From Eubacteriales bacterium (GTDB lineage: Bacteria > Bacillota > Clostridia > Oscillospirales > CAG-272), in assembly GCA_045593965.1 (NCBI GenBank), contig JAZNXP010000157.1, positions 1 through 52,938 on the forward strand: a stretch of 52,938 bases of DNA, read 5' to 3'. A program made the translations under genes and the position numbers. Numbering within the stretch: position 1 is the stretch's first letter; each line of letters starts with the position of its first letter. Shown in pieces: positions 6,207-45,799 of this stretch. The notes beneath the pieces were generated by a model. The model had not been told where the DNA came from, did not search any database, and saw nothing but the letters and a program-made list of their open reading frames with translations.

Positions 6207-8057
6207 TCAATCGAATTGCGAGCGGTAAAGCGTACTGTAAAAGCCACCCTTGGCAAGCAGCTCCTCGTGGTTTCCGCGCTCGGTGATGACACCGTTTTGA
6301 ATGACCAGAATGCAATCCGCGTTCTGAATGGTCGAAAGACGGTGCGCGATCACAAAGCAGGTCCTTCCCTTCATCAATTCTGTCATTGCCTCTTGGATCT
6401 TGATCTCGGTTCGGGAGTCCACGTTGGATGTTGCCTCGTCCAAGATCAACATCGGCGCATCCGAAAGCATGGCACGCGCGATCGTGATCAGCTGACGCTG
6501 TCCTTTGGAAATATTCACGCCGTCATCCAACAAAAGCGTTTGATATCCGTCGGGAAGTCCCTCAATGTAAGTATCGATCCTCGCCGCTCTTGCTGCCGCA
6601 TAGACCTGCTCCTCGGTCACGTCCTCTCGACCGTAAACGATGTTTTCATAGATCGTTCCGTAGAAGAGCCACGTGTCCTGCAACACCATGGTATATGCCT
6701 TGCGCAGATCGGCGCGCTTGATCGAGGCGATCTCTTTTCCGTCGATGCGGATGCTTCCCGAATTGACGTCATAGAAGCGCATCAGCAGGTTGATGACCGT
6801 TGTTTTTCCCGCTCCCGTAGGACCGACGATTGCAATGGTCTTTCCTGCCTCTGCCTTGACCGAAATACCGTGCAGGATCTCTTTTTCGGGAACGTATCCA
6901 AAATGGACGTCCGTAAATTCCACCTCGCCTTTGACGTTCTTCAGCTCTTCAGCATCGGGCGCGTCCTCGGGCTCGGGCTCCTCGTCCAATACGCGGAATA
7001 CGCGATCCGCCGCCGAAAACGCCGACTGAAATTCATGTAAAATATTTGCGAATTCATTGATCGGTCCCGAGAATTTGCGCGAATACTGAACGAACTCGCC
7101 CACGCTGCCAAGCGTGATAAAGAACATTGATCCCACAAGCACAACACCGCTTTGTGAATACATATACAGCACGCCGCCGAACATCGCGATCAACGCGATG
7201 GAAAGGTTATTGATGAAGTTGACCGTGGGGCCGAGCGTTGCGCCGTAGTATTCCGCACGGTAATATGCTTCCATCGCTTCCTCATTTCTTTTGTTGAAGC
7301 GTTGACAGATCACGTCCTCTCTGCCGTATGCCTCAATGGTTCGGCAACCCGACAGCATCTCCTCGGCAAAGCCATTCAATTCACCAAGCTTCTGCGAACG
7401 GTTTCGAAAAAGCGGTCTGACCTTTTTGGAGCGGAACTTTGTGAAAATGATCGAGATCGGGACCGTCACCACAAAGATCAGGATCATCGGCTTTGAGATA
7501 TTCCACATGAAGATCAGCGAACCAATGACCATATATACGCTCGTCATGACCTGGATCAAGTCATGGGAAAGCGAATTGTTGACCGTGTCGATGTCATAGG
7601 AAATACGGCTGATGATGTCACCGACCGCATGTGTGTCAAAATAGGTGATCGGTAAGCGATTCAGCTTTTCAAAGAGCTGTTTTCTCATGCTGTACACGAT
7701 CTTCTGGCTAAGCGTGATCATGATGACCGAAAGCACGTAAGAAAGCACGGCTGCCACCGCATAGCAGATCAACATTCGGATCACGTTTTCCCATACCGTA
7801 TCGAACTGTACGCCGCCTTCTGCAGCGATCGCGTCGATGGCTTCTCCGGAATACATCGGTCCCAACAGCGAGAGCTGATTGGATACCAGCGTGAAGAGCA
7901 ATGCAAGCAAAAACAGCTTCCAATGCTGAAAAACGTATTTTCCGAGTCGCTTTAAGATCGCTCCCGTTGCTTTTCGATCCAATTTTTTATCCATGGGACG
8001 TGCCTGCATATTCCGCATACCGCCGCGCATGCCTCCGCCAAATCCGCCTCTATTCAA
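6207..8057 (-). CDS. ABC exporter, fused permease/ATPase subunit (type I exporter, second subunit of a heterodimer)
   Basis: Six-TM domain plus Walker A GPTGAGKTT, signature ISKGQRQ, Walker B LILDEATS. Start uncertain: TTG 8057 (GGAGG 8 nt upstream) is preferred; alternatives are 8084 and ATG 8030. Confidence 0.9.
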   Translation of the reverse strand: MNRGGFGGGMRGGMRNMQARPMDKKLDRKATGAILKRLGKYVFQHWKLFLLALLFTLVSNQLSLLGPMYSGEAIDAIAAEGGVQFDTVWENVIRMLICYAVAAVLSYVLSVIMITLSQKIVYSMRKQLFEKLNRLPITYFDTHAVGDIISRISYDIDTVNNSLSHDLIQVMTSVYMVIGSLIFMWNISKPMILIFVVTVPISIIFTKFRSKKVRPLFRNRSQKLGELNGFAEEMLSGCRTIEAYGREDVICQRFNKRNEEAMEAYYRAEYYGATLGPTVNFINNLSIALIAMFGGVLYMYSQSGVVLVGSMFFITLGSVGEFVQYSRKFSGPINEFANILHEFQSAFSAADRVFRVLDEEPEPEDAPDAEELKNVKGEVEFTDVHFGYVPEKEILHGISVKAEAGKTIAIVGPTGAGKTTVINLLMRFYDVNSGSIRIDGKEIASIKRADLRKAYTMVLQDTWLFYGTIYENIVYGREDVTEEQVYAAARAARIDTYIEGLPDGYQTLLLDDGVNISKGQRQLITIARAMLSDAPMLILDEATSNVDSRTEIKIQEAMTELMKGRTCFVIAHRLSTIQNADCILVIQNGVITERGNHEELLAKGGFYSTLYRSQFD

Positions 8058-9774
8058 CGAAAGCACCTCCCATCTGCGAGTCACTGATCTCCTTATATTC
8101 CTTGCACGTATTCAGCAGCTCCTCGTGTGTCCCCTTCCCGATGATCTCTCCGTTTTCCAGCACCAAGATCAGATCGCTCTGCATGACCGAGCTGACACGT
8201 TGCGCAACGGTGATCACGGTAGTGTTGGCTTGCTCCTTCCGCAATGCAACACGCAGGGCGGCATCGGTCTTATAGTCCAGCGCGGATGAGCTGTCATCGA
8301 GGATCAGGATGTACGGATCTGCCGCCAGAGCGCGCGCAATGAGAAGTCGCTGTCTCTGTCCGCCCGAAAGATTGGTTCCCTTCGCGGAAAGCAGATGCCC
8401 GTAGCCGTCGGGCAACGCCTCGATAAAATCATGCGCCTGCGCGATCTTTGCTGCTCGAACGATCTGCTCCTTTGTCAGATCTCTGCCAAAGCGGATATTC
8501 TCTTCAACCGTGTCGGCATAGAGAAAATCATTTTGCAAAGCCACTCCGAACAGTGCGGAAAGCTCTTGCTTTTCAAAGCTCCGAACGTCCTTTCCGTCAA
8601 TGCGGATGCTTCCTTTTCCAACGTCGTAAAACCGCAACAAAAGCTTGATCAGCGTTGATTTTCCGCTTCCCGTGCTTCCGATGATACCAAGGCTTCCGCC
8701 TCTTGGAAGCGCAAAATCAATTTCCTTGAGGTGGTCGTGCTTACCCGTATAGGAAAAGCTGACGTGATCAAACACGATTCCCTCCTCAACCTTTTTACCG
8801 CAGTCCTTTTCTTTGGCTTCACATGAAAGCCCCTCGGGGGCATTCATGACCTGGGCGATGCGGTTTGCGGATGCCGCGCATTTGGTATACATGATAAACA
8901 TTCTCGAAACCGTCATCATCGCCATGGAGATCAAGGTGAAATACTGCATAAACGCAATGACCGTTTCGGGATCGGACTTGGAATCGGAAACCGTGATCGC
9001 GCTGATCGCGACAACGGCTGTAATGCCCGCGTTCATGAGCAGGTTCATGATCGGATTGACCGATCCCATGATCATTCCAACGCGGCGTTCCTCGGTGGAA
9101 AGCGTATAGTTGACCTTGTCATAACGATCGTTTTCATATTCATTTTTGGAAAGTGCCTTGATCACGCGGATGCCTTGCGCATCCTCACGCACGACGCGGA
9201 CCATATTGTCCACGGAGGTCTGCACCTTGGCGTACAGCGGAACGCCCTTGCGTGAAATGAAATACACCGTTACAAAGATAAACGGCAGGATCATCAGCAT
9301 GACCGTTGCAAGGCGCGGATCCATCACCATTGTGATCGCGATACCGCCCACAAGCAGGATCGGCGCACGCACGCCCATCCTCTGCATCATTCCCACGAAG
9401 TTATGAACGTGGTACGTATCGGTCGTGATGCGCGACTCCAGCGACGGGATCGTAAAGCGATCGGTCTGCTCGGCGCAAAGCCTCATCGTTTTGGCAAACA
9501 GATCCTTCCGCATCTCTCCCGCGAAGTCCTTGGAAACCTTTGCCGCCATGCGATTGGCAATGATATTACATAGACACGCCACTCCCGCGCACAGGATCAT
9601 CAATCCGCCCCAGAACAGGATCTGCTGAAGGTCCTGCGTAACGACGATCTCCTTTAGGATATGCGTCAGGATATACGGCAAAAACAGCTCCACGACCGTT
9701 CCCAGAACCTTGATCGAAAAGCCAACCCCCATGCGCGGTGCAAAGGGCTTTAGGCGTTGCAACAAATACTTCAT
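8050..9774 (-). CDS. ABC exporter, fused permease/ATPase subunit (first subunit of a heterodimer)
   Basis: Walker A GSTGSGKST, signature LSGGQRQ, Walker B LILDDSSSALD. ATG 9774 overlaps the marR stop (TGATG). This is the only gene in the window ending in TAG (8050..8052). Confidence 0.9.
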   Translation of the reverse strand: MKYLLQRLKPFAPRMGVGFSIKVLGTVVELFLPYILTHILKEIVVTQDLQQILFWGGLMILCAGVACLCNIIANRMAAKVSKDFAGEMRKDLFAKTMRLCAEQTDRFTIPSLESRITTDTYHVHNFVGMMQRMGVRAPILLVGGIAITMVMDPRLATVMLMILPFIFVTVYFISRKGVPLYAKVQTSVDNMVRVVREDAQGIRVIKALSKNEYENDRYDKVNYTLSTEERRVGMIMGSVNPIMNLLMNAGITAVVAISAITVSDSKSDPETVIAFMQYFTLISMAMMTVSRMFIMYTKCAASANRIAQVMNAPEGLSCEAKEKDCGKKVEEGIVFDHVSFSYTGKHDHLKEIDFALPRGGSLGIIGSTGSGKSTLIKLLLRFYDVGKGSIRIDGKDVRSFEKQELSALFGVALQNDFLYADTVEENIRFGRDLTKEQIVRAAKIAQAHDFIEALPDGYGHLLSAKGTNLSGGQRQRLLIARALAADPYILILDDSSSALDYKTDAALRVALRKEQANTTVITVAQRVSSVMQSDLILVLENGEIIGKGTHEELLNTCKEYKEISDSQMGGAFVE

Positions 9775-10217
9775 CAAGCACCTCCCGTAACCAGAGCATC
9801 CACCGCTTCCTTGGCGTTTTGCTCCAATCGCTCAAGCACCGCGTAAAATTGCTCCAGCTCCTCCTCGCTCACGCCCTGCGCGATGCGTTCGTTCCAATCA
9901 CGCGCAATGCCTCTGACACGCGGCAAAAGCTCCTCGCATTTCGTTGTTGGAAAAATGCGGTAGATCCGCTTATCTCCCGCATCGGGACGGCGTTCGATAT
10001 ATCCTTTTTCTTCCAGCTGATTCAAAGTCCTTGTGACCGTGCTTTTGTTCAGGCACAAATGCTTTGCAAGCTGCTCTTGTGTCAGCCCGGGATGTCCTCC
10101 GACGGCAAGCAAGAAGCTATGGTGACATGCGCACAGCTCCTCATCCTTCATCTGCTCCCCGCGATAGATCCCCTGACATCGGCTGATCACGTTCATTCTC
10201 CTCATGATCGCAAGCAT
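9774..10217 (-). CDS. MarR-family transcriptional regulator
   Basis: Winged-HTH segment (LTQEQLAKHLCLNKSTVTRTLNQLEEKGYIERRPDAGDKR). ATG 10217 is preceded by AAGGAG at 7 nt. First gene of the marR-ABC-ABC operon. Confidence 0.85.
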   Translation of the reverse strand: MLAIMRRMNVISRCQGIYRGEQMKDEELCACHHSFLLAVGGHPGLTQEQLAKHLCLNKSTVTRTLNQLEEKGYIERRPDAGDKRIYRIFPTTKCEELLPRVRGIARDWNERIAQGVSEEELEQFYAVLERLEQNAKEAVDALVTGGA

Positions 10218-10497: not shown

Positions 10498-11715
10498 ATG
10501 AATGTACTTGTTGTTAACGCAGGCTTTTCTTCCCTGAAATATCAGGTGATCGACACCGCCACAGGCGATCTGAAGGCAAAGGGTATTTGCGAAAGAATCG
10601 GCGCGGCAGGCTCCGCGATCGAGCATAAGATCAACGGCGAAAAATACGTCAACGAATATCCCATGCCCAATCACTCTGCCGCTATGAAGATCGTTGCGGA
10701 CACTCTGACCGATCCCAAGATGGGCTGCGTAAAGGATATGAGCGAGATCGAGGCTGTCGGACACCGCGTTGTCCACGGCGGTCCTTACTTCTTTGAGAGC
10801 TGTTTGGTTACCGATGAGGTTCTGGAAAAGCTGAAGCTCTGCTGCGATTTCGCACCTCTTCACACCCCCGCTCACCTGATGGGTATTGAGGGCTGTCTTG
10901 ACGTTATGCCCAACACCCCCCAGGTTCTGGTTTTTGATACCGCCTTCCATCAGACCATGCCCGCGTGCGCTTACACCTATCCGCTCTCCGCAGATATGAT
11001 CGAAAAATACAAGATCCGCCGCTACGGCGCACACGGAACCTCTCACCGCTACGTTTCTCAGAAAATGTGCGAGAACCTTGGCAAGGTAGAGGGCACGAAG
11101 ATCGTTACCTGCCACCTTGGAAACGGTTCTTCCATTTCCGCAGTGAAGGACGGTAAGGTCATCGATACCTCCATGGGCTTCACTCCTCTGGACGGTGTTG
11201 AAATGGGTACTCGTTGCGGCTCCATTGACCCTGCAATCGTTCCCTTCCTCATGGAGAGAGAAAACATCGCTCCCGATGCAATGAGCAACTATATGAACAA
11301 GAAGTGCGGCTTCCTCGGTCTTACCGGCATGTCCGACTCCCGTGACCTTGAGGCTGCTGTGGAGAACGGTCCGAGCGATCCCAACTATGAGGCTTGCAAT
11401 TTGGCTACCAGCGTTCTCTTCTACCAGGTCAAGAAGTTCATCGGCGCATATACCGCCGCTATGGACGGTCTGGATGCGATCGTATTCACTGCAGGTCTTG
11501 GTGAGAACAACCCCCGTCTGCGTGAGGTCGTTTGCGAAGGCCTTGGTTACTTTGGCGTAAAGATCGACAAGGAGCTCAACGCAAAGATGCTTCGTCAGTC
11601 CAACATCGTCAAGCTCTCCACTGACGACTCCAAGGTTCTCGTTTACCTCATTCCTACCAACGAAGAGCTGATGATCGCTCAGGACACCGCTCTGCTGGCA
11701 GGCAAAAAGGCTTAA
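10498..11715 (+). CDS. ackA: acetate kinase
   Basis: 405 aa. N-terminus MNVLVVNAGFSSLKYQV. Motifs HRVVHGG, RRYGAHGTSH, HLGNGSS, FTAGLGEN are typical of AckA. Confidence 0.95.
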   Translation: MNVLVVNAGFSSLKYQVIDTATGDLKAKGICERIGAAGSAIEHKINGEKYVNEYPMPNHSAAMKIVADTLTDPKMGCVKDMSEIEAVGHRVVHGGPYFFESCLVTDEVLEKLKLCCDFAPLHTPAHLMGIEGCLDVMPNTPQVLVFDTAFHQTMPACAYTYPLSADMIEKYKIRRYGAHGTSHRYVSQKMCENLGKVEGTKIVTCHLGNGSSISAVKDGKVIDTSMGFTPLDGVEMGTRCGSIDPAIVPFLMERENIAPDAMSNYMNKKCGFLGLTGMSDSRDLEAAVENGPSDPNYEACNLATSVLFYQVKKFIGAYTAAMDGLDAIVFTAGLGENNPRLREVVCEGLGYFGVKIDKELNAKMLRQSNIVKLSTDDSKVLVYLIPTNEELMIAQDTALLAGKKA

Positions 11716-11755
11716 TTATTATTCCGTTTGTTAAAAACGAAAGGATCTTTCTTTT

Positions 11756-14386
11756 ATGAAATGGACATCTCTTAACGAATTGCGTGAAAAATATTTGCAA
11801 TTCTTCGAATCCAAGGGACATCTTCGTCTCCCCTCGTATCCCTTGGTTCCCATCAATGATAAATCCCTGCTCCTGATCAACTCGGGAATGGCTCCCATGA
11901 AAAAATTCTTCACGGGCGAGGAAAAGCCGCCGCGCAACCGCGTAACGACCTGTCAGAAGTGTATCCGTACGCCCGACCTCGAGCGCGTCGGACATACCGC
12001 AAGACACGGTACGTTCTTTGAAATGCTCGGCAACTTCTCCTTTGGTGACTACTTCAAGGACGAAGCCATTCCGTGGGCTTGGGAATTTCTCACCAAAACC
12101 TTGGAGATTCCCGAGGATCTTCTCTGGCCCTCCATCTATGAAAACGATGAGGAAGCATACGAGCTTTGGCTCAACAAGGTTGGCGTTCCCGCCGAGCATA
12201 TCGTTCGTCTTGGCAAGGCAGACAACTTCTGGGAGCATGGCACGGGTCCCTGCGGTCCCTGCTCCGAGATCTATTTCGACCGCGGAATCAAATACGGCTG
12301 CGGTTCTCCCGACTGTAAGCCCGGATGTGATTGCGATCGCTATATGGAGATCTGGAACAACGTATTCTCCCAGTTCAACAACATGGGTGACGGTACTTAC
12401 ACCGAGCTTGCGCAGAAGAACATCGATACCGGTATGGGCTTGGAGCGTCTCGCTTGCATCATGCAGGGCGTTGACAATATGTTCGAGGTTGATTCGATCC
12501 GCAAGGTCATTGATAACGTCTGCGCGATCGCCGGCAAGGAATACGGCAAGGATAAGAACACCGATATTTCCATTCGCGTTGTGACCGACCATATCCGTTC
12601 CGCGACCTTCATGATCTCGGACGGTGTGATTCCCTCCAACGAGGGACGCGGCTACGTGCTTCGCCGCATTCTTCGCCGCGCTTGCCGTCACGGTAAGCTC
12701 CTCGGCATCAACCGTTCCTTCCTGCCTGAGCTTTGTCTGGTAGCCATCGGCGAATCCGAGGGCGCATACCCCGAGCTTGCCGAGAAGAAGGATTATATCC
12801 TCAAGGTCATCTCCATGGACTAGGAACGCTTTGATGCGACCATTGATGCGGGACTTTCCATTCTTTCCAATCTGATCGAGCGCGCGCACGCCGACAATGC
12901 AACCACCGTTTCGGGTGACGACGTATTCAAACTTTACGATACCTTCGGCTTCCCGATCGATCTGACGCGCGAGATCGCGCAGGAAGCAGGACTTGCCATT
13001 GATGAGGAGCGTTTTACAGCTCTGATGCAAGAGCAAAAGGTACGCGCACGCGAAGCGCGCGCCAATATCAGCGGTTGGTCCAACGCTTCCAAGAATTTGC
13101 TGACCGATCTTCCCCTGACCGAGTTCAAGGGCTATGACACGCTCTCTTGTGATGCTAAGGTGCTTGCAATTCTTTGTGATGATATGTCTGTCAACGAGGT
13201 ATCCGAGGGCGAATGCTCCGTCATTCTTGACGCAACGCCCTTCTACGGTGAAGGCGGCGGACAGGTTGGCGACACGGGCGAGCTGCTTTGCGGAAGCACA
13301 ACGCTTACCGTTACCGATACCAAAAAGACCGACGGTGTTTACATCCACCTCTGCTCCGTGGCAAACGGCGTTTTGAAGGTAGGTGACACCGTACAGGCAC
13401 AGGTGGATGCGCATCGCCGTGAAGCGATCATGAGAAACCACTCGGCATGTCACCTTTTGCAAAGTGCTTTGCGCCGCGTGCTCGGCAATCACGTTGAGCA
13501 GGCAGGCTCTTACGTTTCCGATTCGGTTTGCCGCTTTGACTTTACGCACTTTGCCGCTATGACTGCGGAAGAGCTCGCAGCCGTGGAAAGCATCGTCAAC
13601 GCCGAGATCCTGGCAGGCATGGAAGGCTCCATGACTCCCATGGAGCTGGAAGAAGCCAAGAAGCTTGGTGCTATGGCTCTCTTCGGTGAAAAATACGGCA
13701 AGATCGTTCGCGTGGTTCGCATGGGTGAAAGCTCCATCGAATTCTGCGGCGGTACACACGTCGATAATACCGCAAAGATCGGTCTGTTCAAGATCCTTTC
13801 CGAATCCTCGGTTGCCGCAGGCGTTCGCCGCATTGAAGCAACCACGGGTGAGGGTGTTCTGAAATTGCTTGCGGAAAAGAACGCATTGATCGCGCAAACC
13901 GCTAAGGAATTGAAGGTACAAAAGCCCTCTGACCTTGCAAAGCGTGCATCCCAGATGCAAGCGGAAATTGCCGCAATGAAGAAAGAGATCGACTCCCTCA
14001 ACAGCAAGATCGCCGCTTCCCGTCTGGATTCCATCATGGCAGACGCGGTTACCGTCAAATCGGTTCGTTTGGTTGCTACCGATCTTGGAGAGCTTCAGAC
14101 CGACGTTGCGCGTTCCCTGGCTGATGAGATCAAGGCTCGCTATGATGATGTTGTTGCTGTTCTCGCCGTACAGTATGACGGCAAGCTGAACTTCCTTGCT
14201 GTTGCGGGTAAGGATGCGGTTGCCGCAGGCGCACACGCCGGCAAGCTGGTCGGTGCGGTTGCCGCTGTTACAGGCGGTAAGGGCGGCGGACGTCCCGACA
14301 ACGCAATGGCAGGCGGTAAGGAGATTTCCAAAATTTCCGATGCGCTGACAAGTGCCGTAGATACGCTTAGCGGAATGTTGAAATAA
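11756..14386 (+). CDS. alaS: alanine--tRNA ligase, interrupted by one in-frame TAG at 12821..12823
   Basis: Track ORFs 11756..12823 and 13025..14386 are in the same frame. Reading through gives continuous AlaRS sequence ([22 protein letters not shown]..., [14 protein letters not shown], ...[20 protein letters not shown]..., editing-domain HSACHLL, C-terminal [12 protein letters not shown]). Total is 876 sense codons plus the internal TAG, the normal AlaRS length. Confidence 0.9.
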
Positions 14387-14393
14387 TTTTTTC

Positions 14394-14426
14394 AAGGCTA
14401 CTGTTGTTTTACAGTAGCCTTTTTTA
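14394..14426 (+). terminator. rho-independent terminator of alaS
   Basis: AAGGCTACTGT / ACAGTAGCCTT stem plus a T5 run. Confidence 0.8.
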
Positions 14427-14479
14427 TCACATTACTTCATATTTTCTTTCCTATACCAATGAAAATGTTCTTATTTCTA

Positions 14480-14508
14480 TTGACATTTTCTTGTTTTTTT
14501 GATATAAT
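14480..14508 (+). promoter_or_regulatory. sigma-A type promoter (TTGACA, 17 nt spacer, TATAAT)
   Basis: Perfect consensus hexamers at 14480..14485 and 14503..14508. Confidence 0.75.
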
Positions 14509-14552
14509 ATAGGTACGTCAACCGACGAAAAAAACATTTAAAGGAGATCGTT

Positions 14553-14990
14553 ATGAAAAAAACACTTAGAAATGTAATCGTTCTTTTGACTGCTCTTCTC
14601 CTTGTTGTGTCTCTTGCCGCTTGTGACAAGTCCGCTAACATTAAGAAAGCGTTTGAAGATGCAGGTTACACCGTAACGTCCGCAAAAGCTACCGATGACT
14701 CTGTAAAAGGTCTTCTCGATCTGCTTTTGAACGATGAGCAAATGAAGGAAGCTGAAAATTATGAGATCATTCTTTGCAAAGTTGACGGTTTGCTTAACAT
14801 CGGAAAAACCGCTGTTGTCCTGAAGGTTCCCTCTGCGGGCGACCTGAAGAACTTCCTCACGGTTGAGGATGAGGACGGCAAGAAGGATACATCCGTTTAC
14901 GACAAGGCTGTTGAAGACGGTAAGATCAACGGAAATTGCATGATCTTCACCGCAAGCAGCGAGTCTCTTGAAATTTTCAAAAAAGCATAA
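14553..14990 (+). CDS. small lipoprotein, function unknown
   Basis: Signal peptide with lipobox (LLVVSLAAC-DKS). AGGAG RBS. 145 aa. Confidence 0.7.
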   Translation: MKKTLRNVIVLLTALLLVVSLAACDKSANIKKAFEDAGYTVTSAKATDDSVKGLLDLLLNDEQMKEAENYEIILCKVDGLLNIGKTAVVLKVPSAGDLKNFLTVEDEDGKKDTSVYDKAVEDGKINGNCMIFTASSESLEIFKKA

Positions 14991-15055
14991 TAACAAGGCG
15001 CGGCATCTTTTGGATGCCGCGCTCTGTTATTCGATATGAGTTTTATATAAAAATA

Positions 15056-15100
15056 GAACCCCGCGCGGTGTTTTTTACCGTTCGGGGCTCTATCTTTTTC
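15056..15100. terminator. hairpin with T-runs on both strands (terminates rplU-prp-rpmA and possibly the lipoprotein gene)
   Basis: GAACCCCG...CGGGGCTC stem (G-U on the minus-strand RNA). T-runs follow on both strands. A second GC-rich hairpin lies at 14998..15022. Confidence 0.55.
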
Positions 15101-15107
15101 AGATTGA

Positions 15108-16374: not shown

Positions 16375-16403
16375 TTGACAATCATGTGATTGTGTTGTAT
16401 AAT
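16375..16403 (+). promoter_or_regulatory. sigma-A type promoter (TTGACA, 17 nt spacer, TATAAT)
   Basis: Perfect hexamers at 16375..16380 and 16398..16403, upstream of the P-type ATPase. Confidence 0.75.
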
Positions 16404-16438
16404 TATAGCAACTTCAAAATTCTCAAGGAGGAATTGTT

Positions 16439-19081
16439 TTGAATCATCATTTTCAACCGCTCGATTCCGTTCTGAACGCGCTTGAAACCTCTGCTCAATC
16501 GGGACTCAACTCCGATCAAGTGAAGAAAAAGCAAACGGAATTCGGTCCAAACAAGCTTCGTGAAAAGAAAAAGAAAACAACGCTGCAACGCTTCGCGGAA
16601 CAGTTCAAGGACGTTATGATCCTGATCCTCATTGCCGCCGCGATCATCTCCTTCGTTGTGATCTGTTTGGAAAAGAACTGGGGAGAGCTTTTTGAGCCCT
16701 GCCTCATTCTCCTGATCGTCATTCTCAATGCGGTCATGGGAGTTTATCAAGAAGGAAAAGCAGAAAAAGCGTTGGATGCACTGAAAAATATGTCCGCACC
16801 GCACGCTCGCGTCATTCGCAACGGTTCCGAGCAGGTGATCGATGCCTCCGAGCTCGTTCCCGGTGACATCATCAAGCTGGAAGCGGGTGACTTTGTTCCC
16901 GCAGATGCCCGTCTGATCCAGAGCGTCAGCCTCAAATCCGAGGAATCCGCATTGACAGGCGAATCCGTCCCCTCCGAAAAGGATGCGACCGCATCCGTTG
17001 CGGAAAACGCGCCCATCGGTGACCGCACCAACATGATCTTCTCGGGCTGTAGCATTACCTACGGCACCGCTCTCGCGGTCGTTACCTCCACGGGTATGGA
17101 CACCGAAATGGGTAAGATCGCCAACCTGCTGGACGGTGAGACCGATGCGCAGACCCCTCTGCAAAAGAAGCTTGCCGACCTTGGCAAGATCCTTGGTGTG
17201 GTTGCGATCGCCGCTTGCGCCATCATCTTCGTTGTTGGATTGCTCAATCAGATTCCCCCGCTCGAGATCTTCATGACCGCAGTTTCTCTTGCAGTCTCCG
17301 CGATCCCCGAGGGACTTCCCGCGATCGTTACGATCGTTCTTTCCATCGGCGTGCAACGCATGGTAAAGAAAAACGCGCTGATCCGCCGCTTGCCTGCGGT
17401 TGAAACGCTCGGCGGTGCTTCGGTCATCTGCTCGGATAAGACGGGTACCTTGACGCAGAACCGTATGACCTTGACCAAGGCATACGTTGACGGAACCGAC
17501 GATACCGAAGCGATCTCCTCTTCCAACTCCGATCCCATTCAAAAGCTGTTGACCTACGGCACGCTTTGCTGTGACGGCTCTGTTATTTTCAACGGTGACG
17601 AGGAGCAGCACATCGGTGATCCCACAGAGACCGCGATCGTTCTCGCGGCTCACAAAAACGGACTTGAAAAGGATGCTCTGAATACGCAGTATCCCCGCCT
17701 TGCAGGCATTCCCTTTGATTCCGACCGCAAGCTGATGACGACCGTCAACCGCATTGACGGCAAAAACGTCGTCATCGTCAAGGGTGCGTTTGATATGATG
17801 GCACCCCGCTGTATCAAGGGCAACGTCGAAAAAGCAAAAGAGATGACCGATCGGATGAGTGCCGACGCGCTCCGTGTATTGGCTGTCGCTTATAAAGAAA
17901 TTGATACGGTCCCCGAAAATCCCACCTCCGAGGCACTTGAAAAGGATCTTACCTTTATGGGTCTTGTGGGTATGATCGACCCGCCCCGCCCCGAGGCAAA
18001 GGAAGCCGTTGCGCTCTGTCGCCGCGCGGGTATCAGACCCGTTATGATCACGGGTGACCACGTTGTGACCGCATCCGCCATTGCAAAGGAGCTTGGTATT
18101 CTGCAGGAGGGCGACCGTGCCATCACGGGTGCTGAACTTGACGCAATGAATGACACCGAGCTGGACGCGCAGGTTGAAAGCATTTCCGTTTATGCGCGCG
18201 TATCTCCCGAAAACAAGATCCGCATCGTTAAGGCATGGCAACGCAAGGATCAAGTCGTATCCATGACGGGTGACGGCGTGAACGACGCGCCCGCGCTCAA
18301 AGCTGCCGACATCGGCTGCGCAATGGGCATCACGGGTACGGACGTTGCAAAGGGTGCTGCCGACATGACCTTGACAGACGATAACTTTGCCACCATCGTT
18401 GACGCGGTTCAGGAAGGTCGCGGAATCTATTCCAATATCAAAAAGGTCGTTGGATTCCTTCTCGGAACCAACATCGGTGAGGTCATTACCGTCTTTGCCG
18501 CAATGCTTCTCTGGCACAAAACACCCCTTCTCTCCATGCATCTTCTGATGATCAATCTGGTCACCGACAGTCTCCCCGCAATCGCCCTTGGCATGGAAGC
18601 GGTGGAAAAAGACGTCATGGATCACAAGCCGAAGCCCAAGCACGAGGGAATCTTCGCAGGTGGTTTAGGTGTTCGCGTTGTGCTTCAGGGACTGATGTTC
18701 GCGGCACTCACCCTGATCGGATTTAAGGTCGGTGAGTATTACGCACAGGACGTTCTCAAGCTTGTTGACAGCGATCTCATCCTTCAATACGGACAGACGC
18801 TTGCCTTCATGGTCCTTGCACTTTCCCAGGTCGTGCAGGCATATAATATGAGAAGTGAACACTCGCTCTTCAAGATCGGTCCCTTCAGCAACCATACGCT
18901 CAACTGGGCGGCTCTTGCTTCCACCGCTCTCGTAGCACTCGTTCTCTTTACTCCCCTTGGTGTGATCTTTAAGATCACCATGCTTCCCTGGCAGCTTTAC
19001 CTCATCGGACTTGGACTGGTTTTGGTTCCCTTCGTTGTGATGGAGATCTGCAAGCTGATCAAGCATCTCCTTCACCGCTAA
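16439..19081 (+). CDS. P-type cation-transporting ATPase (type II, Ca2+-ATPase-like)
   Basis: 880 aa. Motifs TGES, phosphorylation site ICSDKTGTLTQN, MITGDH, MTGDGVNDAPALK. TTG start with AAGGAGG 7 nt upstream. Confidence 0.92.
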   Translation: MNHHFQPLDSVLNALETSAQSGLNSDQVKKKQTEFGPNKLREKKKKTTLQRFAEQFKDVMILILIAAAIISFVVICLEKNWGELFEPCLILLIVILNAVMGVYQEGKAEKALDALKNMSAPHARVIRNGSEQVIDASELVPGDIIKLEAGDFVPADARLIQSVSLKSEESALTGESVPSEKDATASVAENAPIGDRTNMIFSGCSITYGTALAVVTSTGMDTEMGKIANLLDGETDAQTPLQKKLADLGKILGVVAIAACAIIFVVGLLNQIPPLEIFMTAVSLAVSAIPEGLPAIVTIVLSIGVQRMVKKNALIRRLPAVETLGGASVICSDKTGTLTQNRMTLTKAYVDGTDDTEAISSSNSDPIQKLLTYGTLCCDGSVIFNGDEEQHIGDPTETAIVLAAHKNGLEKDALNTQYPRLAGIPFDSDRKLMTTVNRIDGKNVVIVKGAFDMMAPRCIKGNVEKAKEMTDRMSADALRVLAVAYKEIDTVPENPTSEALEKDLTFMGLVGMIDPPRPEAKEAVALCRRAGIRPVMITGDHVVTASAIAKELGILQEGDRAITGAELDAMNDTELDAQVESISVYARVSPENKIRIVKAWQRKDQVVSMTGDGVNDAPALKAADIGCAMGITGTDVAKGAADMTLTDDNFATIVDAVQEGRGIYSNIKKVVGFLLGTNIGEVITVFAAMLLWHKTPLLSMHLLMINLVTDSLPAIALGMEAVEKDVMDHKPKPKHEGIFAGGLGVRVVLQGLMFAALTLIGFKVGEYYAQDVLKLVDSDLILQYGQTLAFMVLALSQVVQAYNMRSEHSLFKIGPFSNHTLNWAALASTALVALVLFTPLGVIFKITMLPWQLYLIGLGLVLVPFVVMEICKLIKHLLHR

Positions 19082-22222: not shown

Positions 22223-25075
22223 TTATTCGGTCATGAACCAATAATACCAATCAAATTCCATCTTTTCCGCCATCGCACCGCCAAGCGAAGGAAGCTCTTC
22301 GCCGATTACGGTATACGCGCCAACGACGTATTGGTAATTATAGAGGATGTCTCCTTCGGTGTAAGCACCGTCAATGGAAATGCTGAAATTATCGTAGTCC
22401 TCAACGAAAACATTGCGAAGCTCTGCAAAGAGAGCGGCAGATACGGTGTAAGAACCGTCTGCGTTCTTCGTCAGATAGCGGTTTACGTCATAAAGAATGC
22501 TCGACTTAACTGCCCATGCGGAGATCTCTCCGTTATATAGCTCCTCAACCAGCGTACCGTTCTCGTACTTGCAAGCAACCCAGACGCAGTTGGTCTCGCT
22601 GATGGGAAGATAACCGTAAACGTAAACGGTCTCGCCGAAGTCTGCCTTGCCCTTGATGTACATGGTGCTGCCGGAGGTAAGCTTCATGGTCTCAAGGTTC
22701 ATCTGCTCAAAGCCGTTCTCATCCTTGATCTCGTACAGATTGATGTATCTGCCATCGACCTTTGCGAAATAAGAAGGCATCAGAATGGTTACCTCCACCA
22801 TGTTCGCATAAGAAGCGGTCACGTCGTTTCCGTTTGCGTCGTAAACGTCATATTCGAGTGCCATCTTATCCGTGACGGGTTTACCCATGGAGGGATCGAA
22901 CATGTTATCCGTGTTTTCGATCTTTTCGCCGATCACCAAATATACGTCGCCCGTATTCTCATCCCACTCGTGGTTGAACGTATAGCAGGTGCCGTCCTTT
23001 GCAACGAGATATTGGAAAGAATAGCCGTGGTCACCCCAGTAACCTTCCTTGGTCGCGTAGATCTCAAGACCGTAATTTGCGGACATCTGCGCATCCTTTT
23101 CAACGATCTCTTCGATCGGGAAATCAATGTAAGGCGCGCTCAATTCAAATTCATACTCTGCCTTCGTATTCAATCCGCTGATCACGAGATTGCCGTTTGC
23201 ATCGTACGTTTGAGAGATCTTATTGCTCGTTGCCGCATTGAGATGCTCGGGGATGGTGACCTTTGCGTTGGGATCCTGCTTGAGTTCAAGCTTCAGATCA
23301 ACGATCGGTGCCTTTTGACCGTCCGCGATCATGGAAACGTCACCCTCGATCACAAAAGAAGTGATCTTGCCGTCCGCATTCACTGCAAGCGTGAAGCCCA
23401 TTGCATCGACCGCGAACATATTGATATAGCCCTTCGCCATTGCAATAATCTCTGCGAGGGTGAACATATTTTCCTCAACGGAGGGCTCCTCTGTGGAAGG
23501 AATGTCTTCCTCGGGAGCACTCTTCTCGGAAGACGTCATATCGTTTTTTTCTTCCTCTACGGGAGGATTGGGAACGGTAGACTCATGCTGGGGAGGAGGC
23601 AGCTCTTCATCAGCACTGCCGCCTGCGGAAAGCGTAATGGTGATCTCACCGACGTGCATTGTGGTAAAGATTTCGCTTGCCCAATCGTAAAACGCGGTCA
23701 GCGTCATTGTTTCATCCTGATACAGCATTGAAACAAGCTCATCCAACGTCACGTCACGGCATTCATTCAACATTTCTTCGATATCAAATGCTTCTCCGCT
23801 CTCCTCGGTCACGTATGCGTTGATCATCGCATAAAGCTCTTCCATCGTGAAGGCGCCGCTATCCTGAACAAACTTGATTGCCTGATCGATAAAGGTGCCG
23901 CAGGTCATATCACCCGTGATCGTCGCACGGATATGTGCTTCCAAAGTAGCCCAGTCGGTTACTTCGGGATTGATCTGACCCATGTTGGGAGCAAGCAGGC
24001 TGTAGATATAGTCTGCAACGGTCATCTCACAAACCGCTTCCAGCGCCTCAACGTATGCCTTTACGGCATTCAGCGTGGGAATGGCGTCAAACGCGTACGT
24101 CTTACCGTTTCCGTTTTCCGTAACGGTGATGATGCCCTCGAACGCCTTCAAGCAATCGTCCACGGTGGGAAGTGTTACACCCTCGACCGCCTTGATCTCG
24201 GTCTCAATGCCGAGCTCCTTTGCAAGAGTAGCGTATGCCGTATCCAACAGATCGGCAAAAGCCATCAGCTCCTCTGCCTTCATTTCCTGACCGAGGTAGG
24301 TCATCAGCGCTTCAATGCGCGCGCCCTCTTCTGCAATGAATGCCTGCAGCTCGGTGCGGAATTGCTTCAAATATGCTTCCGCGCTGTCATTCATCAGCAC
24401 GCTTGCCTTATCCAAAACGGTAACATAATCCGCAAAGGTTGCCTCTATGCTTGCGTCGAGATCATAGATATCGACCGATTTTCCATCCTTCTCGCACGCG
24501 GCAAGAACGCCGTCACGGTAGAGTGCCGAAATCGCTTCAACATCCTCTCCCTCGGTCAAAACGTACTCAAACCATGCAAGATAAATGCCGTTTTCCTTGC
24601 ATACGGTCATATTGACCGCTACGCTCATCGGACCGCTGCCTGCCACAAAGGAAAGTGTGCCGTTTTCTTCACCCAACAGGTTTACGTAAACCGACTCGAT
24701 CAATTCCGAATAGGAGTCCATAACGGTATCCTCGGGGACGCCCAACGCGGGAATCTCCTCCGATGCCATCGCTCCGCAAACGCCGCAGGTGTGCGTTTTG
24801 GTGCCTGCCTCGGTCGCGGTCGCATCCTTGGTGACCGTCCAGTCGCCCCAAGCGTGCGCAACCATTGCCGTAGGCGTTCCTGCTGCTACGGTAACGCCGC
24901 AATCACGGCATACGAGGTCACCCGTATAGCCTTCTGCCGTACAGCTTGCCGCGATCGTGTTGCGCAGCTCGGTGTTTGCGTGTGCGCATTCCTTGGTGGG
25001 ACCGCACGATGCCAAGAGCATGCAGAGAACCAACAAAATCGGCAAAATACGAACTGTTAATGTTTTCATACTCAT
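22223..25075 (-). CDS. large (950 aa) surface lipoprotein with an N-terminal Cys-rich module, function unknown
   Basis: Signal peptide plus lipobox (LLASC-G). Cys-rich segment CAHANTELRNTIAASCTAEGYTGDLVCRDCG...HAWGDWTVTKDATATEAGTKTHTCGVCG. Acidic, Pro-rich linker (EELPPPQHESTVPNPPVEEEKND...) between two large domains. Confidence 0.8.
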   Translation of the reverse strand: MSMKTLTVRILPILLVLCMLLASCGPTKECAHANTELRNTIAASCTAEGYTGDLVCRDCGVTVAAGTPTAMVAHAWGDWTVTKDATATEAGTKTHTCGVCGAMASEEIPALGVPEDTVMDSYSELIESVYVNLLGEENGTLSFVAGSGPMSVAVNMTVCKENGIYLAWFEYVLTEGEDVEAISALYRDGVLAACEKDGKSVDIYDLDASIEATFADYVTVLDKASVLMNDSAEAYLKQFRTELQAFIAEEGARIEALMTYLGQEMKAEELMAFADLLDTAYATLAKELGIETEIKAVEGVTLPTVDDCLKAFEGIITVTENGNGKTYAFDAIPTLNAVKAYVEALEAVCEMTVADYIYSLLAPNMGQINPEVTDWATLEAHIRATITGDMTCGTFIDQAIKFVQDSGAFTMEELYAMINAYVTEESGEAFDIEEMLNECRDVTLDELVSMLYQDETMTLTAFYDWASEIFTTMHVGEITITLSAGGSADEELPPPQHESTVPNPPVEEEKNDMTSSEKSAPEEDIPSTEEPSVEENMFTLAEIIAMAKGYINMFAVDAMGFTLAVNADGKITSFVIEGDVSMIADGQKAPIVDLKLELKQDPNAKVTIPEHLNAATSNKISQTYDANGNLVISGLNTKAEYEFELSAPYIDFPIEEIVEKDAQMSANYGLEIYATKEGYWGDHGYSFQYLVAKDGTCYTFNHEWDENTGDVYLVIGEKIENTDNMFDPSMGKPVTDKMALEYDVYDANGNDVTASYANMVEVTILMPSYFAKVDGRYINLYEIKDENGFEQMNLETMKLTSGSTMYIKGKADFGETVYVYGYLPISETNCVWVACKYENGTLVEELYNGEISAWAVKSSILYDVNRYLTKNADGSYTVSAALFAELRNVFVEDYDNFSISIDGAYTEGDILYNYQYVVGAYTVIGEELPSLGGAMAEKMEFDWYYWFMTE

Positions 25076-26548: not shown

Positions 26549-26586
26549 AAGCTGCCCTTCCCTCGGTTGGGTAGCTTCTTTTTTTC
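26549..26586 (+). terminator. rho-independent terminator of the kinase gene
   Basis: AAGCTGCCC / GGGTAGCTT stem (one G-U), then C followed by a T7 run. Confidence 0.7.
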
Positions 26587-26626
26587 AACGAACAGGGGTG
26601 CCGCCGAAGCGACACCCCTGTTCGTT
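26587..26626 (-). terminator. GC-rich hairpin immediately downstream of hydA (no clear U-tract)
   Basis: AACGAACAGGGGTG / CACCCCTGTTCGTT 14-bp stem with an inner CGC-TTCG-GCG. Confidence 0.4.
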
Positions 26627-26632
26627 GTTCAA

Positions 26633-28393
26633 TTATTTATACAAACCGCGCTTTACGTAGCTGGTGTGCAGGATCTCGTGTGCCTTATGGCTGTTGGGAG
26701 CTCCGAAGAACTCGTCATACAGCTTCTGCACCGCGAGGTTATCCTGGGACTTACGCAGCTCGTCGTTTGCGTCGTCGTTGTACAGAACGGCTGCGCGAAC
26801 TGCACGCAGATCCATGTTCATGCGAACGCTTGCGGGCTGAATCGGCTGACCGCCACCGTTGACGCATCCGCCGGGGCAACCCATGATCTCGATGAACTGA
26901 ACGTCAAGCTCGCCTGCCTTCACCTTGTTCAGAAGCTCCTTCGCCTTACCCGTGCTGGATGCAACTGCAACGTTAACGGTAAGATCGCCAAGCTTATAGG
27001 ATGCGGTCTTGATGCCTTCTACGCCACGAACCTCGTTGAAGTCAACCTTCTCCAGCTTCTTGCCGAGAATGACCTCTGCAGCATAACGGAGAGCAGCCTC
27101 CATAACGCCGCCGGTTGCGCCGAAGATTGCGCCTGCGCCCGATCCGATCGCAAAAGGATCGTCAAACTTCGCTTCCTCAAGAGCGCGGAAGTTGATGCCT
27201 GCCTTCTTGATCATTCTGCCGACCTCACGCGTGGTGATCGCGTAATCAACGTCGGGAACACCTGCTGCGGACTGTCCGTCACGTCCAACCTCGAATTTCT
27301 TCGCGGTACAAGGAATTGCGGAAACCATCACGATATCCTTGGGATCCCAGCCCATCTTCTGTGCGTAGTAGGTCTTAACAACTGCGCCGAACATCTGCTG
27401 AGGAGACTTGCAGGTGGAAAGGTTATCCACAAATTCCGGGAAGTAATGCTCGCAGTACTTGATCCATCCGGGAGAGCAAGAGGTGATCATCGGGAGAGCT
27501 CCGTTGTTCTGAATTCTGCCCAGAAGCTCGTTTGCTTCCTCAACGATGGTAAGGTCTGCGGTCAGGTTCATGTCATATACGCCGTCAAAGCCGAGTGCCT
27601 TAAGTGCCGCAACCATCTTGCCCTCGCAATCGGTGCCGGGCTCATAGCCGAAGCATTCGCCGATCTGTGCGCGAACGGAAGGAGCGGTACAAATAACAGT
27701 ATGCTTCGTAGGATCTGCGATTGCAGCGAATACACCGTCGGTATCGTCTCTCTCATAAAGAGCACCAACAGGGCAAGCTACGATGCACTGTCCACAGTTG
27801 ATACAAGAGGTCTCAGCCAGTGCTTGCTCGAATGCGGAACCGATGTAGGTATCAAAGCCGCGGTTGTTTGCGCCGATAACGCCAATCTGCTGTACCTTTG
27901 CGCAGGTTGCTACGCAACGGCGGCAAAGTACGCACTTGCTGTTGTCACGGATGATCGGAGTCTTGTCGTCGATCTCGTACTGATTTACTTCACCTACAAA
28001 GCTGGAGGAATTTACGCCGTACTCACGGCACAGCGACTGCAACTCACAGTTGGTGGAGCGTACGCAGGAGAGACAGTCCTGATTGTGGTTGGAGAGCAAC
28101 AGCTCAAGGTTCATCTTGCGGGATGTAGCGATCTTGGGCGTGTTGGTCTTGATCTCCATACCCTCGGTGCAAGGATACACGCAAGCAGTAACCATACGCC
28201 AAGGACCAAGTGCGGGACCGCGCATTTCCGCAACCTCTACAAGGCACAGACGGCATGCGCCGATCTCGTTGATATCTTTCAGATAGCAGAGCGTCGGAAT
28301 ATCGATGTGCGCTGCTTTAGCGGCTTCCAGAACCGTGGAACCCTTGGCAACGGAATATTCCGTGCCGTTAATTTTTACTTTAATCATATCCAT
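26633..28393 (-). CDS. hydA: [FeFe]-hydrogenase catalytic subunit (M3 architecture, bifurcating-type HydA)
   Basis: N-terminal 2Fe-2S, His-ligated 4Fe-4S and two ferredoxin-type CxxCxxCxxxC(P) motifs. H-cluster motifs are TSCSPGW (variant of TSCCPxW), IPCTAKKFE, and EIMGCPGGCVNGGGQP. Confidence 0.92.
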   Translation of the reverse strand: MDMIKVKINGTEYSVAKGSTVLEAAKAAHIDIPTLCYLKDINEIGACRLCLVEVAEMRGPALGPWRMVTACVYPCTEGMEIKTNTPKIATSRKMNLELLLSNHNQDCLSCVRSTNCELQSLCREYGVNSSSFVGEVNQYEIDDKTPIIRDNSKCVLCRRCVATCAKVQQIGVIGANNRGFDTYIGSAFEQALAETSCINCGQCIVACPVGALYERDDTDGVFAAIADPTKHTVICTAPSVRAQIGECFGYEPGTDCEGKMVAALKALGFDGVYDMNLTADLTIVEEANELLGRIQNNGALPMITSCSPGWIKYCEHYFPEFVDNLSTCKSPQQMFGAVVKTYYAQKMGWDPKDIVMVSAIPCTAKKFEVGRDGQSAAGVPDVDYAITTREVGRMIKKAGINFRALEEAKFDDPFAIGSGAGAIFGATGGVMEAALRYAAEVILGKKLEKVDFNEVRGVEGIKTASYKLGDLTVNVAVASSTGKAKELLNKVKAGELDVQFIEIMGCPGGCVNGGGQPIQPASVRMNMDLRAVRAAVLYNDDANDELRKSQDNLAVQKLYDEFFGAPNSHKAHEILHTSYVKRGLYK

Positions 28394-28413
28394 TTGTCCA
28401 CAATTCTCCTTTC

Positions 28414-30231: not shown

Positions 30232-30249
30232 AGTACTGATACCTCCAAA

Positions 30250-30624
30250 TTATGCTTTCTTGGCAGATCCGATCGTGTATTCCTCCACGATCTTGCCGCC
30301 CTTGATATGCTCTGCAAGCACTTTTTCTGCTTTTTCAGCAGTCATCTTAACGTAGGTCACCTTCTCCTTACCGGGTTGAACGACCTCCACGATCGGCTCA
30401 TACTGGCACAGACCGATGCATCCGGTCTGGCTGACGGTTACCGTGTTGTTAAGGTTCTCGCGGTTTACGCCCTCCACAAAAGCGTTGAGTACGGGACGTG
30501 CGCCGGCTGCAATTCCGCAGGTAGCCATACCTACTACGATACGAGTATCGTTGGTACCCTCACGAAGAACGACCTTGTCCTTCATTTTGTCTCTGATTGC
30601 AGCAAGTTCTGCCAAAGATTTCAT
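30250..30624 (-). CDS. thioredoxin-like [2Fe-2S] ferredoxin (HndB/HydD-like)
   Basis: 124 aa. Cys pattern ...MATCGIAAG...QTGCIGLCQYEP... is typical of this family. Lies directly upstream of the nuoF-like gene. Confidence 0.8.
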   Translation of the reverse strand: MKSLAELAAIRDKMKDKVVLREGTNDTRIVVGMATCGIAAGARPVLNAFVEGVNRENLNNTVTVSQTGCIGLCQYEPIVEVVQPGKEKVTYVKMTAEKAEKVLAEHIKGGKIVEEYTIGSAKKA

Positions 30625-30649
30625 AGTTTCAGTTCCTTTCCTTCATCAT

Positions 30650-31216
30650 TTATAAATTATTATTTTGATTACTGTATTGCTCCCGCAAATATTCCGCGAT
30701 CCATTGGATCACCTCGGGGGTATTCGGCGGGACGTCCGCCCCCAGAATCTGCCGCACCTCCCTCATGTCCAGCTCCGCAACGGTCTGACCGCTGACAGTG
30801 TGCCGAAACAGAAGGTTGATATCGGGACTCCCCTGGATCAGAGTTGTCACCGTGGAAACGATGTCTCCCATCGGAGTGCAATCGATGTGCGACGTATCGA
30901 ACGTTGCGACCACTTCCGTTCCATGTGTTTCCGCATACTCGGATTCATGGCGCGACGTGATCGTGACCGAGCCGCCCGTTTGCTCCGCCGCGAGCTTGAG
31001 AAGCGGAATTCCCATTCCCACCTTTCGCGTCGTGCGCGTGGTACAGAACGGATCGACCACGCTCTTTAAAAATTCGGGCTTCATGCCGCAGCCGTTATCC
31101 GCCACGGTCAATTGCAGCATGTTCTCGGTTTCATCCAACAGAATTTCGATCCGATCGGCTTTCGCCTTGACCGAATTCATGGCGATGTCCAGCACATTCA
31201 AAGAAAGCTCTTTCAT
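30650..31216 (-). CDS. stand-alone histidine-kinase-like ATPase (HATPase_c) protein
   Basis: N box LDIAMNSVKA, G1 DNGCGM, G2 GMGIPLL. No HisKA or sensor domain. ATGA overlap with the PHP gene. Confidence 0.75.
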   Translation of the reverse strand: MKELSLNVLDIAMNSVKAKADRIEILLDETENMLQLTVADNGCGMKPEFLKSVVDPFCTTRTTRKVGMGIPLLKLAAEQTGGSVTITSRHESEYAETHGTEVVATFDTSHIDCTPMGDIVSTVTTLIQGSPDINLLFRHTVSGQTVAELDMREVRQILGADVPPNTPEVIQWIAEYLREQYSNQNNNL

Positions 31217-31953: not shown

Positions 31954-32279
31954 CGATCGATGCTTGTCAATTCTTTGACAAGCTCGTACGCGGTCAGGTC
32001 GCTCGTGAGAACGTTGATGCCCTTTTCCTTTGCGGTGTTGATCGCGTTTTCATCCAACGTGACTCCCTCCGCCAAAAGGATCGCCGCAACGTCTGTCAAC
32101 GCCGCCACCGCGATGATATTGATGTTGGACATAATGGTGATCCAGAGATTATTCGCCTCTGCTCTACCCATTACCCAACTGAGCAGATCTCCGATATAAA
32201 CGCCGTCGAATTCCCGATCGCCCTTCGGCAATGCAAGAGCGCGCAGGGAGAGCTTTTCCGATAATTCCGAAACCGTCAT
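31950..32279 (-). CDS. DRTGG-domain protein
   Basis: 109 aa. Resembles the small DRTGG-family proteins seen next to Fe-hydrogenase genes. The start ATG directly abuts the stop of the upstream gene (TAAATG). Confidence 0.6.
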   Translation of the reverse strand: MTVSELSEKLSLRALALPKGDREFDGVYIGDLLSWVMGRAEANNLWITIMSNINIIAVAALTDVAAILLAEGVTLDENAINTAKEKGINVLTSDLTAYELVKELTSIDR

Positions 32280-33575: not shown

Positions 33576-33606
33576 CGTCTTGTTCCTTTTCCGCCGAAAT
33601 CGGGAT

Positions 33607-34379: not shown

Positions 34380-34412
34380 ATGGCTGTCCCTTGCCCTTTC
34401 GATGTAGAAAGA

Positions 34413-41633: not shown

Positions 41634-41648
41634 ATTCCACACTCCTCA

Positions 41649-45699: not shown

Positions 45700-45799
45700 T
45701 TTTTTCACCGTAGAATGTACTTGCACAGAGCAAAAGGACCGTCCCACGAACGAACCGTGCGGCGTGTCCGACTCCGAAAAAGGAGGTGATGTCCTTTGT

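Follow-up and report, generated by a model that had tools for sequence, protein, structure and literature searches.

Classical amber nonsense alleles are rescued by suppressor tRNAs, such as those of supD, supE and supF in E. coli, and phages are able to carry suppressor tRNAs as well. At the same time, pyrrolysine decoding and stop-codon reassignment are detected by just such a signature, a conserved protein with an in-frame UAG, where it should be noted that the known bacterial stop reassignments, pyrrolysine aside, all concern UGA (Codetta screen, PMC8629427). In the case of alanyl-tRNA synthetase (AlaRS), a natural division of the enzyme has been described for the Nanoarchaeota, in which two genes, each with its own start, together cover all conserved residues (PMC11392972, PMC10036535). 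The break lies inside the tRNA-recognition domain and past the catalytic core. The E. coli enzyme has two determinants of the G3:U70 identity pair, namely Asn303, which contacts U70, and Asp400, which contacts G3 (PMC10036535). Finally, internal stops can be spurious: they are known to arise in low-coverage assemblies (PMC11017572, BMC Genomics 2024), and metagenome-assembled genomes (MAGs) have curation issues of their own (PMC7111523).

The stretch of DNA analysed here (the window) is the whole of an NCBI contig of a MAG, 52,938 bp in length, with relatives among the uncultured Clostridia (Oscillospiraceae, Eubacteriales) of the ruminant gut. It carries the gene encoding AlaRS, alaS, in a frame that runs from an ATG at 11756 to a TAA at 14384-14386 and that comprises 876 codons when read through, with no frameshift and a single internal stop, i.e. 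a TAG at codon 356 that is present in the deposited contig (Table 1). The ORFs on the two sides, 11756..12823 and 13025..14386, are in a common frame (offset 1269 = 423 x 3), and in the existing annotation the halves are two distinct proteins, one of 355 and one of 453 residues. The read-through product shares 83-95% identity with its 120 closest database homologs, all of which are full-length (mostly 876 residues) and contain the Pfam domains PF01411, PF07973 and PF02272 (catalytic domain, second additional domain and DHHA1/C-Ala, respectively). The best protein match (P0001) is 95% identical at the amino acid level, and the AlaRS of Aquifex (1RIQ) is matched with E = 4e-140. The TAG is located within the conserved M-E-[E] stretch of the enzyme, and the codon bias is the same before and after it (0.47 versus 0.50 bits per codon). 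An earlier first-pass annotation of the window had described the stop as an interruption of a continuous AlaRS frame, situated in a conserved acidic stretch and flanked by coding sequence of equal codon bias, and all of this is borne out by the frame and by the homologs.

Table 1. Features of the window that bear on the premature TAG in alaS
Feature	Position	Strand	Basis
alaS (alanyl-tRNA synthetase), split by TAG	11756..14386	+	Pfam in homologs; 1RIQ; dN/dS versus L081
In-frame TAG, codon 356; Glu (GAG/GAA) in all relatives examined	12821..12823	+	Homologs, related loci
Codon 355 GAC (Asp), window-specific; Glu (GAR) in relatives	12818..12820	+	Adjoins the TAG
Sole CTAG of the window	12820..12823	.	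Tetranucleotide count, shuffles, Markov model
Asn295, counterpart of E. coli Asn303; upstream of the stop	12638..12640	+	Alignment to 3HXZ/3HXU
Asp402, counterpart of E. coli Asp400; between the stop and the first possible restart	12959..12961	+	Alignment to 3HXZ/3HXU
67 conserved codons absent from the 355-residue product and from a restart at 13025	12824..13024	+	Start/Shine-Dalgarno scan; dN/dS 0.10
First in-frame ATG past the stop, Met424	13025..13027	+	AGGAG about 15 nt upstream, too distant
Control: only TAG that ends a gene in the window (ABC transporter 8050..9777)	8050..8052	-	L081 ortholog: TAG at the same residue

Comparison with the alaS genes of close relatives, a check that the first-pass annotation had proposed, yields a sense codon (Glu) at the site throughout. 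At the protein level, Glu occupies the column of codon 356 in 120/120 homologs and the column of codon 355, where the window has Asp (GAC), likewise in 120/120; moreover, 59 homologous queries place Glu opposite the TAG. At the DNA level, the motif could be located in 48 related loci, all of which read GAR-GAR-GAR, with codon 356 being GAG in 33 of them and GAA in 15. The nearest relative, locus L081 (95% amino acid and 84% nucleotide identity), reads ATG GAA GAG GAA where the window reads ATG GAC TAG GAA, so that the lesion relative to this locus consists of two adjacent bases, 12820-12821, changed from AG to CT. The single-base change from GAG to TAG that had originally been suggested does not agree with these data, as two adjacent bases separate the window from every relative (GAC-TAG versus GAR-GAR). 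A single G to T origin would be possible only by way of an Asp-Glu intermediate, which is absent among the homologs; such an intermediate would nevertheless not be absurd, because at residues 388 and 808, too, the lineage of the window replaced Glu by Asp. An origin of the AG to CT change in template switching, or in quasi-palindrome correction, was considered and set aside upon inspection: there is a perfect palindrome, TCCATGGA, just upstream, and it is not extended by the change. Formally, AG to CT is also a 2-bp inversion, to which no meaning can be assigned.

Same-species sequence was searched for in the protein collection, in the GTDB representative genomes, in two JGI metagenome scans and by exact look-ups of neighbouring proteins, and none was found in these sources, the closest sequences being at 95% amino acid or 84% nucleotide identity and nothing nearer. 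Specifically, the contents of the protein clusters added one member (P0122) that likewise reaches only 95%; the best match in the GTDB representative genomes was 93% identical, over the N-terminal part; the two metagenome DNA scans gave one distant match (L082, 72% nucleotide identity), which has GAA-GAA at the site; and no same-species sequence came from looking up the N-terminal fragment, L27 and a neighbouring protein of 145 residues by exact match.

The change of codon 355 has a second consequence, as its last base forms, together with the premature TAG, the only CTAG of the window. In dinucleotide-preserving shuffles of the 52,938 bp CTAG occurs 78.6 +/- 9.4 times (at least once in 100/100 shuffles), and a second-order Markov model predicts 16.2 occurrences, versus the one observed. 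The avoidance is shared by the relatives: the loci L081, L001 and L002 have zero CTAG in about 37 kb, and over the 82 related loci the frequency is 0.7-2.1 per 10 kb versus about 39 expected. It is part of a broader depletion, of about 5-fold for both TAG (151 observed versus 753 expected in the window) and CTA (185 versus 877), that holds regardless of frame and strand. Such avoidance at the level of the DNA suffices to account for the rarity of TAG stops and, together with the rarity of TTA and TCA codons, explains why there are long antisense "mirror" ORFs. When the 336 TAGs on the two strands of the window are inspected for the preceding base, C is found only at the palindromic site 12820-12823 and at 0/334 of the others; in the relatives, C precedes 2.0% of the TAGs. 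Among the possible single-base changes that would create a TAG in the genes of the window, 31% would follow a C. The resulting likelihood ratio favours an unfiltered change over a maintained site by a factor of roughly 15 to over 90. Since one would expect a maintained recoding site to shed its CTAG, for which the silent change of GAC to GAT suffices, the premature stop appears not to have passed the compositional filter of its lineage and would be either not biological or very young. This argument tells old from new only; it does not tell an error from a very recent real mutation.

Apart from the stop, alaS has the properties of a working gene. Relative to L081, dN/dS is 0.014 for codons 1-355 and 0.059 for codons 357-876. 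When the differences separating the window from its sister (P0001) were polarised with the other 118 sequences, the derived amino acid changes numbered 2 versus 2 in the N-terminal part and 8 versus 15 in the C-terminal part (window versus sister), and the deviations at near-invariant columns numbered 10 in each of the two. Strong purifying selection thus acts on the gene before as well as after the stop, with no acceleration on the branch of the window. In a Pfam scan of 40 neighbouring genes no domain match was split or truncated, and an in-frame TAG is absent from all of the other approximately 46 genes of the window. The original observation that the remainder of the gene is not degraded thus stands: there is one stop, no frameshift and a low dN/dS on both sides.

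Taken together, we consider it probable (about 0.72) that the TAG is a lesion of the deposited MAG consensus, that is to say either an error of base calling or assembly, or a non-viable variant captured by the assembler. A technical or transient cause, rather than a viable allele, is the most likely one. In the latter case, a non-viable variant of low frequency, or else a damaged molecule, would have won the consensus at modest coverage. We favour this reading because the lesion is a lone one, because it affects a constrained gene, because it produces the only CTAG in a genome purged of CTAG, and because lesions of a comparable kind occur in sister MAGs. The lesion breaks two independent constraints, namely an essential reading frame and a near-total avoidance of CTAG. 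As regards the sister MAGs, alaS of locus L031 has TAG in place of AAG at residue 646, in the conserved motif LFGE-K-YG where 56 homologous queries align Lys, and alaS of locus L069 has a frameshift near codon 25. Sporadic lesions of alaS at unrelated sites are thus found in 2/82 related MAG loci, which, for an essential gene of 2.6 kb, is on a par with the single lesion in the 53 kb of the present contig. Several contigs of the clade are named with a k-mer coverage of only 1.7-2.6.

The resemblance to the spurious-stop pseudogenes of draft and low-coverage assemblies is twofold: a lone internal stop in an otherwise intact, conserved and essential gene for which the relatives have a sense codon, and isolated lesions at other positions in the sister MAGs. 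The present case differs in that the error in the window is one that we infer, and in that it spans two adjacent bases, which is rarer than a single miscall. Two considerations weigh against a lesion of the consensus: a contig of 53 kb implies reasonable coverage, and an error of two bases is not of the commonest kind, because short-read assemblers normally require recurrence in several reads. The first-pass annotation had listed four explanations without choosing among them. An error is now the favoured one, an old pseudogene is contradicted, inefficient termination at TAG is not supported, and suppression is without positive evidence.

The strongest competitor, which we nonetheless regard as unlikely, is a real and recent nonsense allele that is tolerated by means of a second copy of alaS, spontaneous readthrough of UAG, or a tRNA of chromosomal or phage origin that suppresses amber codons. 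In its favour, the TAG stands in the consensus of a long contig, the intact remainder of the gene would fit a very young allele, L031 shows that another MAG of the clade likewise has an in-frame TAG in alaS, and there are phage genes at the 3' end of the contig. The analogy with the classical suppressed amber alleles is that a change of the GAG to TAG type in an essential gene needs such rescue for viability. Nevertheless, the components that would provide for it were not encountered: the window contains no tRNA gene, and a CUA anticodon is found in none of the 4 tRNAs that occur in about 940 kb (the window plus the related loci). Furthermore, not one other gene of the window, the phage-like ones included, is interrupted by an in-frame TAG, and the best 80 related loci each fall in a separate MAG bin, without a sign of alaS paralogs. 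A suppressor able to rescue alaS would also read through those TAG terminators that are conserved in position (see below), and the new CTAG would be a second cost in a genome purged of it. RNA structure downstream of the TAG was no more stable than that of shuffled sequence (z = +0.75). The suppression or readthrough that had been put forward at first is therefore lacking in positive evidence (i.e. a tRNA in the window, another in-frame TAG or a stimulatory RNA structure), yet it retains the small probability given to this alternative.

A far less probable alternative is that the UAG is decoded by design, with the lineage or the gene reading TAG as an amino acid, either pyrrolysine or the product of an early reassignment. 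The rarity of TAG terminators gives this alternative some appeal. In the codon-bias gene map of the window (about 47 genes) the stops are TAA in 32 cases, TGA in 14 and TAG in 1, and in the related loci TAG ends 14/376 called genes (3.7%), a situation reminiscent of codon capture, the stage before reassignment; in addition, two independent in-frame TAGs occur in alaS within the clade. However, TAG ends genes at orthologous C-termini or a few residues away from them. This holds for alaS itself, whose terminator in L009, L057 and L070 is a TAG that coincides, to within a few residues, with the point at which dozens of orthologs stop with TAA or TGA, and the one TAG-terminated gene of the window, the ABC transporter, has an ortholog in L081 with TAG at the identical residue. 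On this evidence TAG is an ordinary terminator in the clade. It had initially been proposed that termination at TAG is inefficient in this lineage; the orthologous C-termini speak against that, and the rarity of the codon reflects depletion at the DNA level, since the shortage of TAG and CTA extends to each frame and to either strand, which is not the mark of a translational cause.

The in-frame stops themselves do not point to a common decoding either. A tblastn search with 325 trusted ORF segments against the approximately 940 kb gave only two in-frame stops with good support, each of them a TAG within alaS, and five further events that are single-query noise from mirror frames. That both are in alaS is a matter of ascertainment, because the loci were selected by means of alaS, which accounts for about a quarter of their sequence. 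The two TAGs fall on different invariant residues, Glu (120/120) in the window and Lys (56/56) in L031, and therefore no single decoding fits both. Recoding of TAG throughout the lineage was rejected on these grounds, i.e. one in-frame TAG in about 47 genes, two in about 940 kb, inconsistent residues, and a TAG that still marks C-termini. As to the machinery, neither pylT nor pylSBCD, nor a methylamine methyltransferase gene with a UAG, is found in the 53-kb window, and an Rfam scan matched no family. The present TAG therefore shares with pyrrolysine decoding and stop reassignment the signature of an in-frame UAG in a conserved protein, and differs from them in being a lone case, with no consistent residue, no pyl genes in the window and no tRNA-CUA in the approximately 940 kb, in a setting where TAG is a working terminator. 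A site under maintenance should moreover have dropped its CTAG, as argued above, and a UAG reassignment would be at odds with the bacterial precedents, which are all UGA (PMC8629427).

In its boldest form the decoding alternative would hold that the TAG is real and translated, and that a TAG-purged lineage of ruminant-gut Clostridia is starting to tolerate or decode UAG as sense, which we judge to be very improbable. The level of TAG in the lineage, 0.2 of expectation and 2-4% of stops, is what such a scenario would start from. The route, to which we attach an equally slight chance, would be a suppressor tRNA, possibly phage-borne, or a weakened RF1, with the window and L031 as the first visible cases.

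A functional AlaRS in two pieces, of the alpha/beta type of the Nanoarchaeota, would require that the N-terminal fragment of 355 residues associates non-covalently with a separately initiated C-terminal fragment, and we give it next to no chance. The position of the stop is what recommends it. In an alignment to the aminoacylation domains of Aquifex and E. coli the TAG lies at approximately E. coli Glu364, between Asn295 (E. coli Asn303) and Asp402 (E. coli Asp400) in the tRNA-recognition domain, which is broadly where the enzyme of Nanoarchaeum equitans is split (PMC10036535, PMC11392972) and, as in that enzyme, past the catalytic core. The 355-residue product accordingly keeps the catalytic core and is without Asp402, the editing domain and C-Ala. 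The difference from the archaeal system lies in the second half, which has no start of its own: there is no in-frame ATG, GTG or TTG between the stop and 13025, so that 67 codons would be skipped, and no Shine-Dalgarno motif at working distance from a start in 12824-13025. The sole near-cognate codon with a Shine-Dalgarno-like motif is an ATT at 12998, at residue 415 and thus already past Asp402. Every restart would drop Asp402 and a conserved motif of 10 residues. The skipped segment is still subject to purifying selection (dN/dS 0.10 versus L081), and AlaRS is a single chain in all relatives. The first-pass annotation had already noted that no restart with a Shine-Dalgarno sequence is available and that about 67 residues would be lost at 13025, and had rejected a two-piece enzyme; our scan agrees, and the rejection is sharpened by the presence of a G3:U70 determinant among the residues that would be missing.

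An established pseudogene in a decaying region, for which the internal stop in the coding sequence would speak, is just as implausible, given the dN/dS of 0.014 and 0.059, a window branch without excess changes over its sister (including equal deviations, 10 each, at near-invariant columns), the lack of other stops or frameshifts in alaS and the undisrupted neighbouring genes, so that the pseudogene option of the earlier annotation appears contradicted as regards an old event and survives only as a very recent one.

If the TAG is indeed a lesion of the deposited consensus, codon 356 in the living lineage would most likely be GAG (Glu), and alaS would encode one ordinary enzyme of 876 residues. 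In practical terms, alaS of this MAG is to be treated as one gene and not as two fragments, which amounts to a correction of the annotation, and the gene in the window is not to be cited in support of recoding. Were the TAG to be genuine and decoded, it would be a notable case of bacterial UAG recoding in an essential gene, at an early stage of codon capture. More generally, the reasoning supplies a reusable diagnostic for suspect codons: a codon that creates a word which the genome otherwise purges, here CTAG, marks a change that has not been filtered by evolution.

Within the window, TAG ends 1 of 47 genes, and in the 82 related loci (L001-L082) from metagenome-assembled genomes (MAGs) it ends 14 of 376. 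Since the trinucleotides TAG and CTA are depleted about 5-fold on both strands and in all frames, the scarcity of TAG terminators is an effect of DNA composition. Conserved C-termini are still marked by TAG in both sets. Phage-like genes occupy the contig's 3' end (45764..52852); they include a large terminase and a portal gene (see table) and suggest a prophage or an element of phage origin. These genes follow the standard code, and none of them has an in-frame TAG.

CTAG occurs once in the whole window, at 12820-12823, where it comprises the last base of codon 355 and the premature TAG of the alanyl-tRNA synthetase gene alaS, against an expectation of 205 from composition, 79 from dinucleotide shuffles and 16 from a Markov-2 model. 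Its depletion is common to the related loci (0.7-2.1 per 10 kb). GGCC (0.13) and CCGG (0.20) are likewise strongly depleted in the window and GATC is enriched (1.33), a pattern that resembles restriction-site avoidance.

Lesions in alaS were found in two sister MAGs. L031 (JAZOWT010000105.1) is a second MAG of the clade with an in-frame TAG in this gene (7930-7932), here an AAG to TAG change that replaces the invariant lysine in the LFGE-K-YG motif, and the preceding base is not C. L069 (JAFVRA010000101.1) carries a frameshift near codon 25 (~6060-6075), such that the N-terminal 24 residues of its AlaRS lie in one frame and the remainder in another. Downstream of alaS, the interval to the L21-Prp-L27 operon differs between the window (14387..15107), where it holds a 145-aa ORF (14553..14990), and the nearest relative (L081:12632..15367), where it holds a 672-aa gene, both without Pfam match.

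Very long ORFs, up to 913 aa, mirror real genes on the opposite strand (see table). The rarity of TTA, CTA and TCA codons (1.3, 0.9 and 2.2 per 1000 in the window) accounts for these ORFs, which therefore do not speak for antisense genes.

Selected features of the window
Feature	Position	Strand	Context
Large terminase	46213..47550		phage-like region
P22-like portal	49376..50920		phage-like region
Mirror ORF	11654..14395	-	opposite real gene
Mirror ORF	16403..18643	-	opposite real gene
Mirror ORF	26567..28525	+	opposite real gene
Mirror ORF	28417..30213	+	opposite real gene
Mirror ORF	37590..39521	-	opposite real gene

A HydABC-type [FeFe]-hydrogenase cluster (26633..34994(-)) encodes the hydrogenase large subunit, Nuo51-like and thioredoxin-like 2Fe-2S subunits and a second hydrogenase-like protein, and its small DRTGG, HATPase and PHP proteins resemble regulators. 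No Pfam match at E <= 1e-5 was obtained for three large ORFs of 950 aa (22223..25075(-)), 526 aa (40062..41642(-)) and 571 aa (47644..49359(+)), all of which score well as coding sequence. Finally, the mechanically called 168-aa ORF at 44494..45000(-) contains a small acid-soluble spore protein (SASP) domain in residues 107-165 only; the true gene probably starts further downstream and is much shorter, and its presence indicates a spore-forming lineage.
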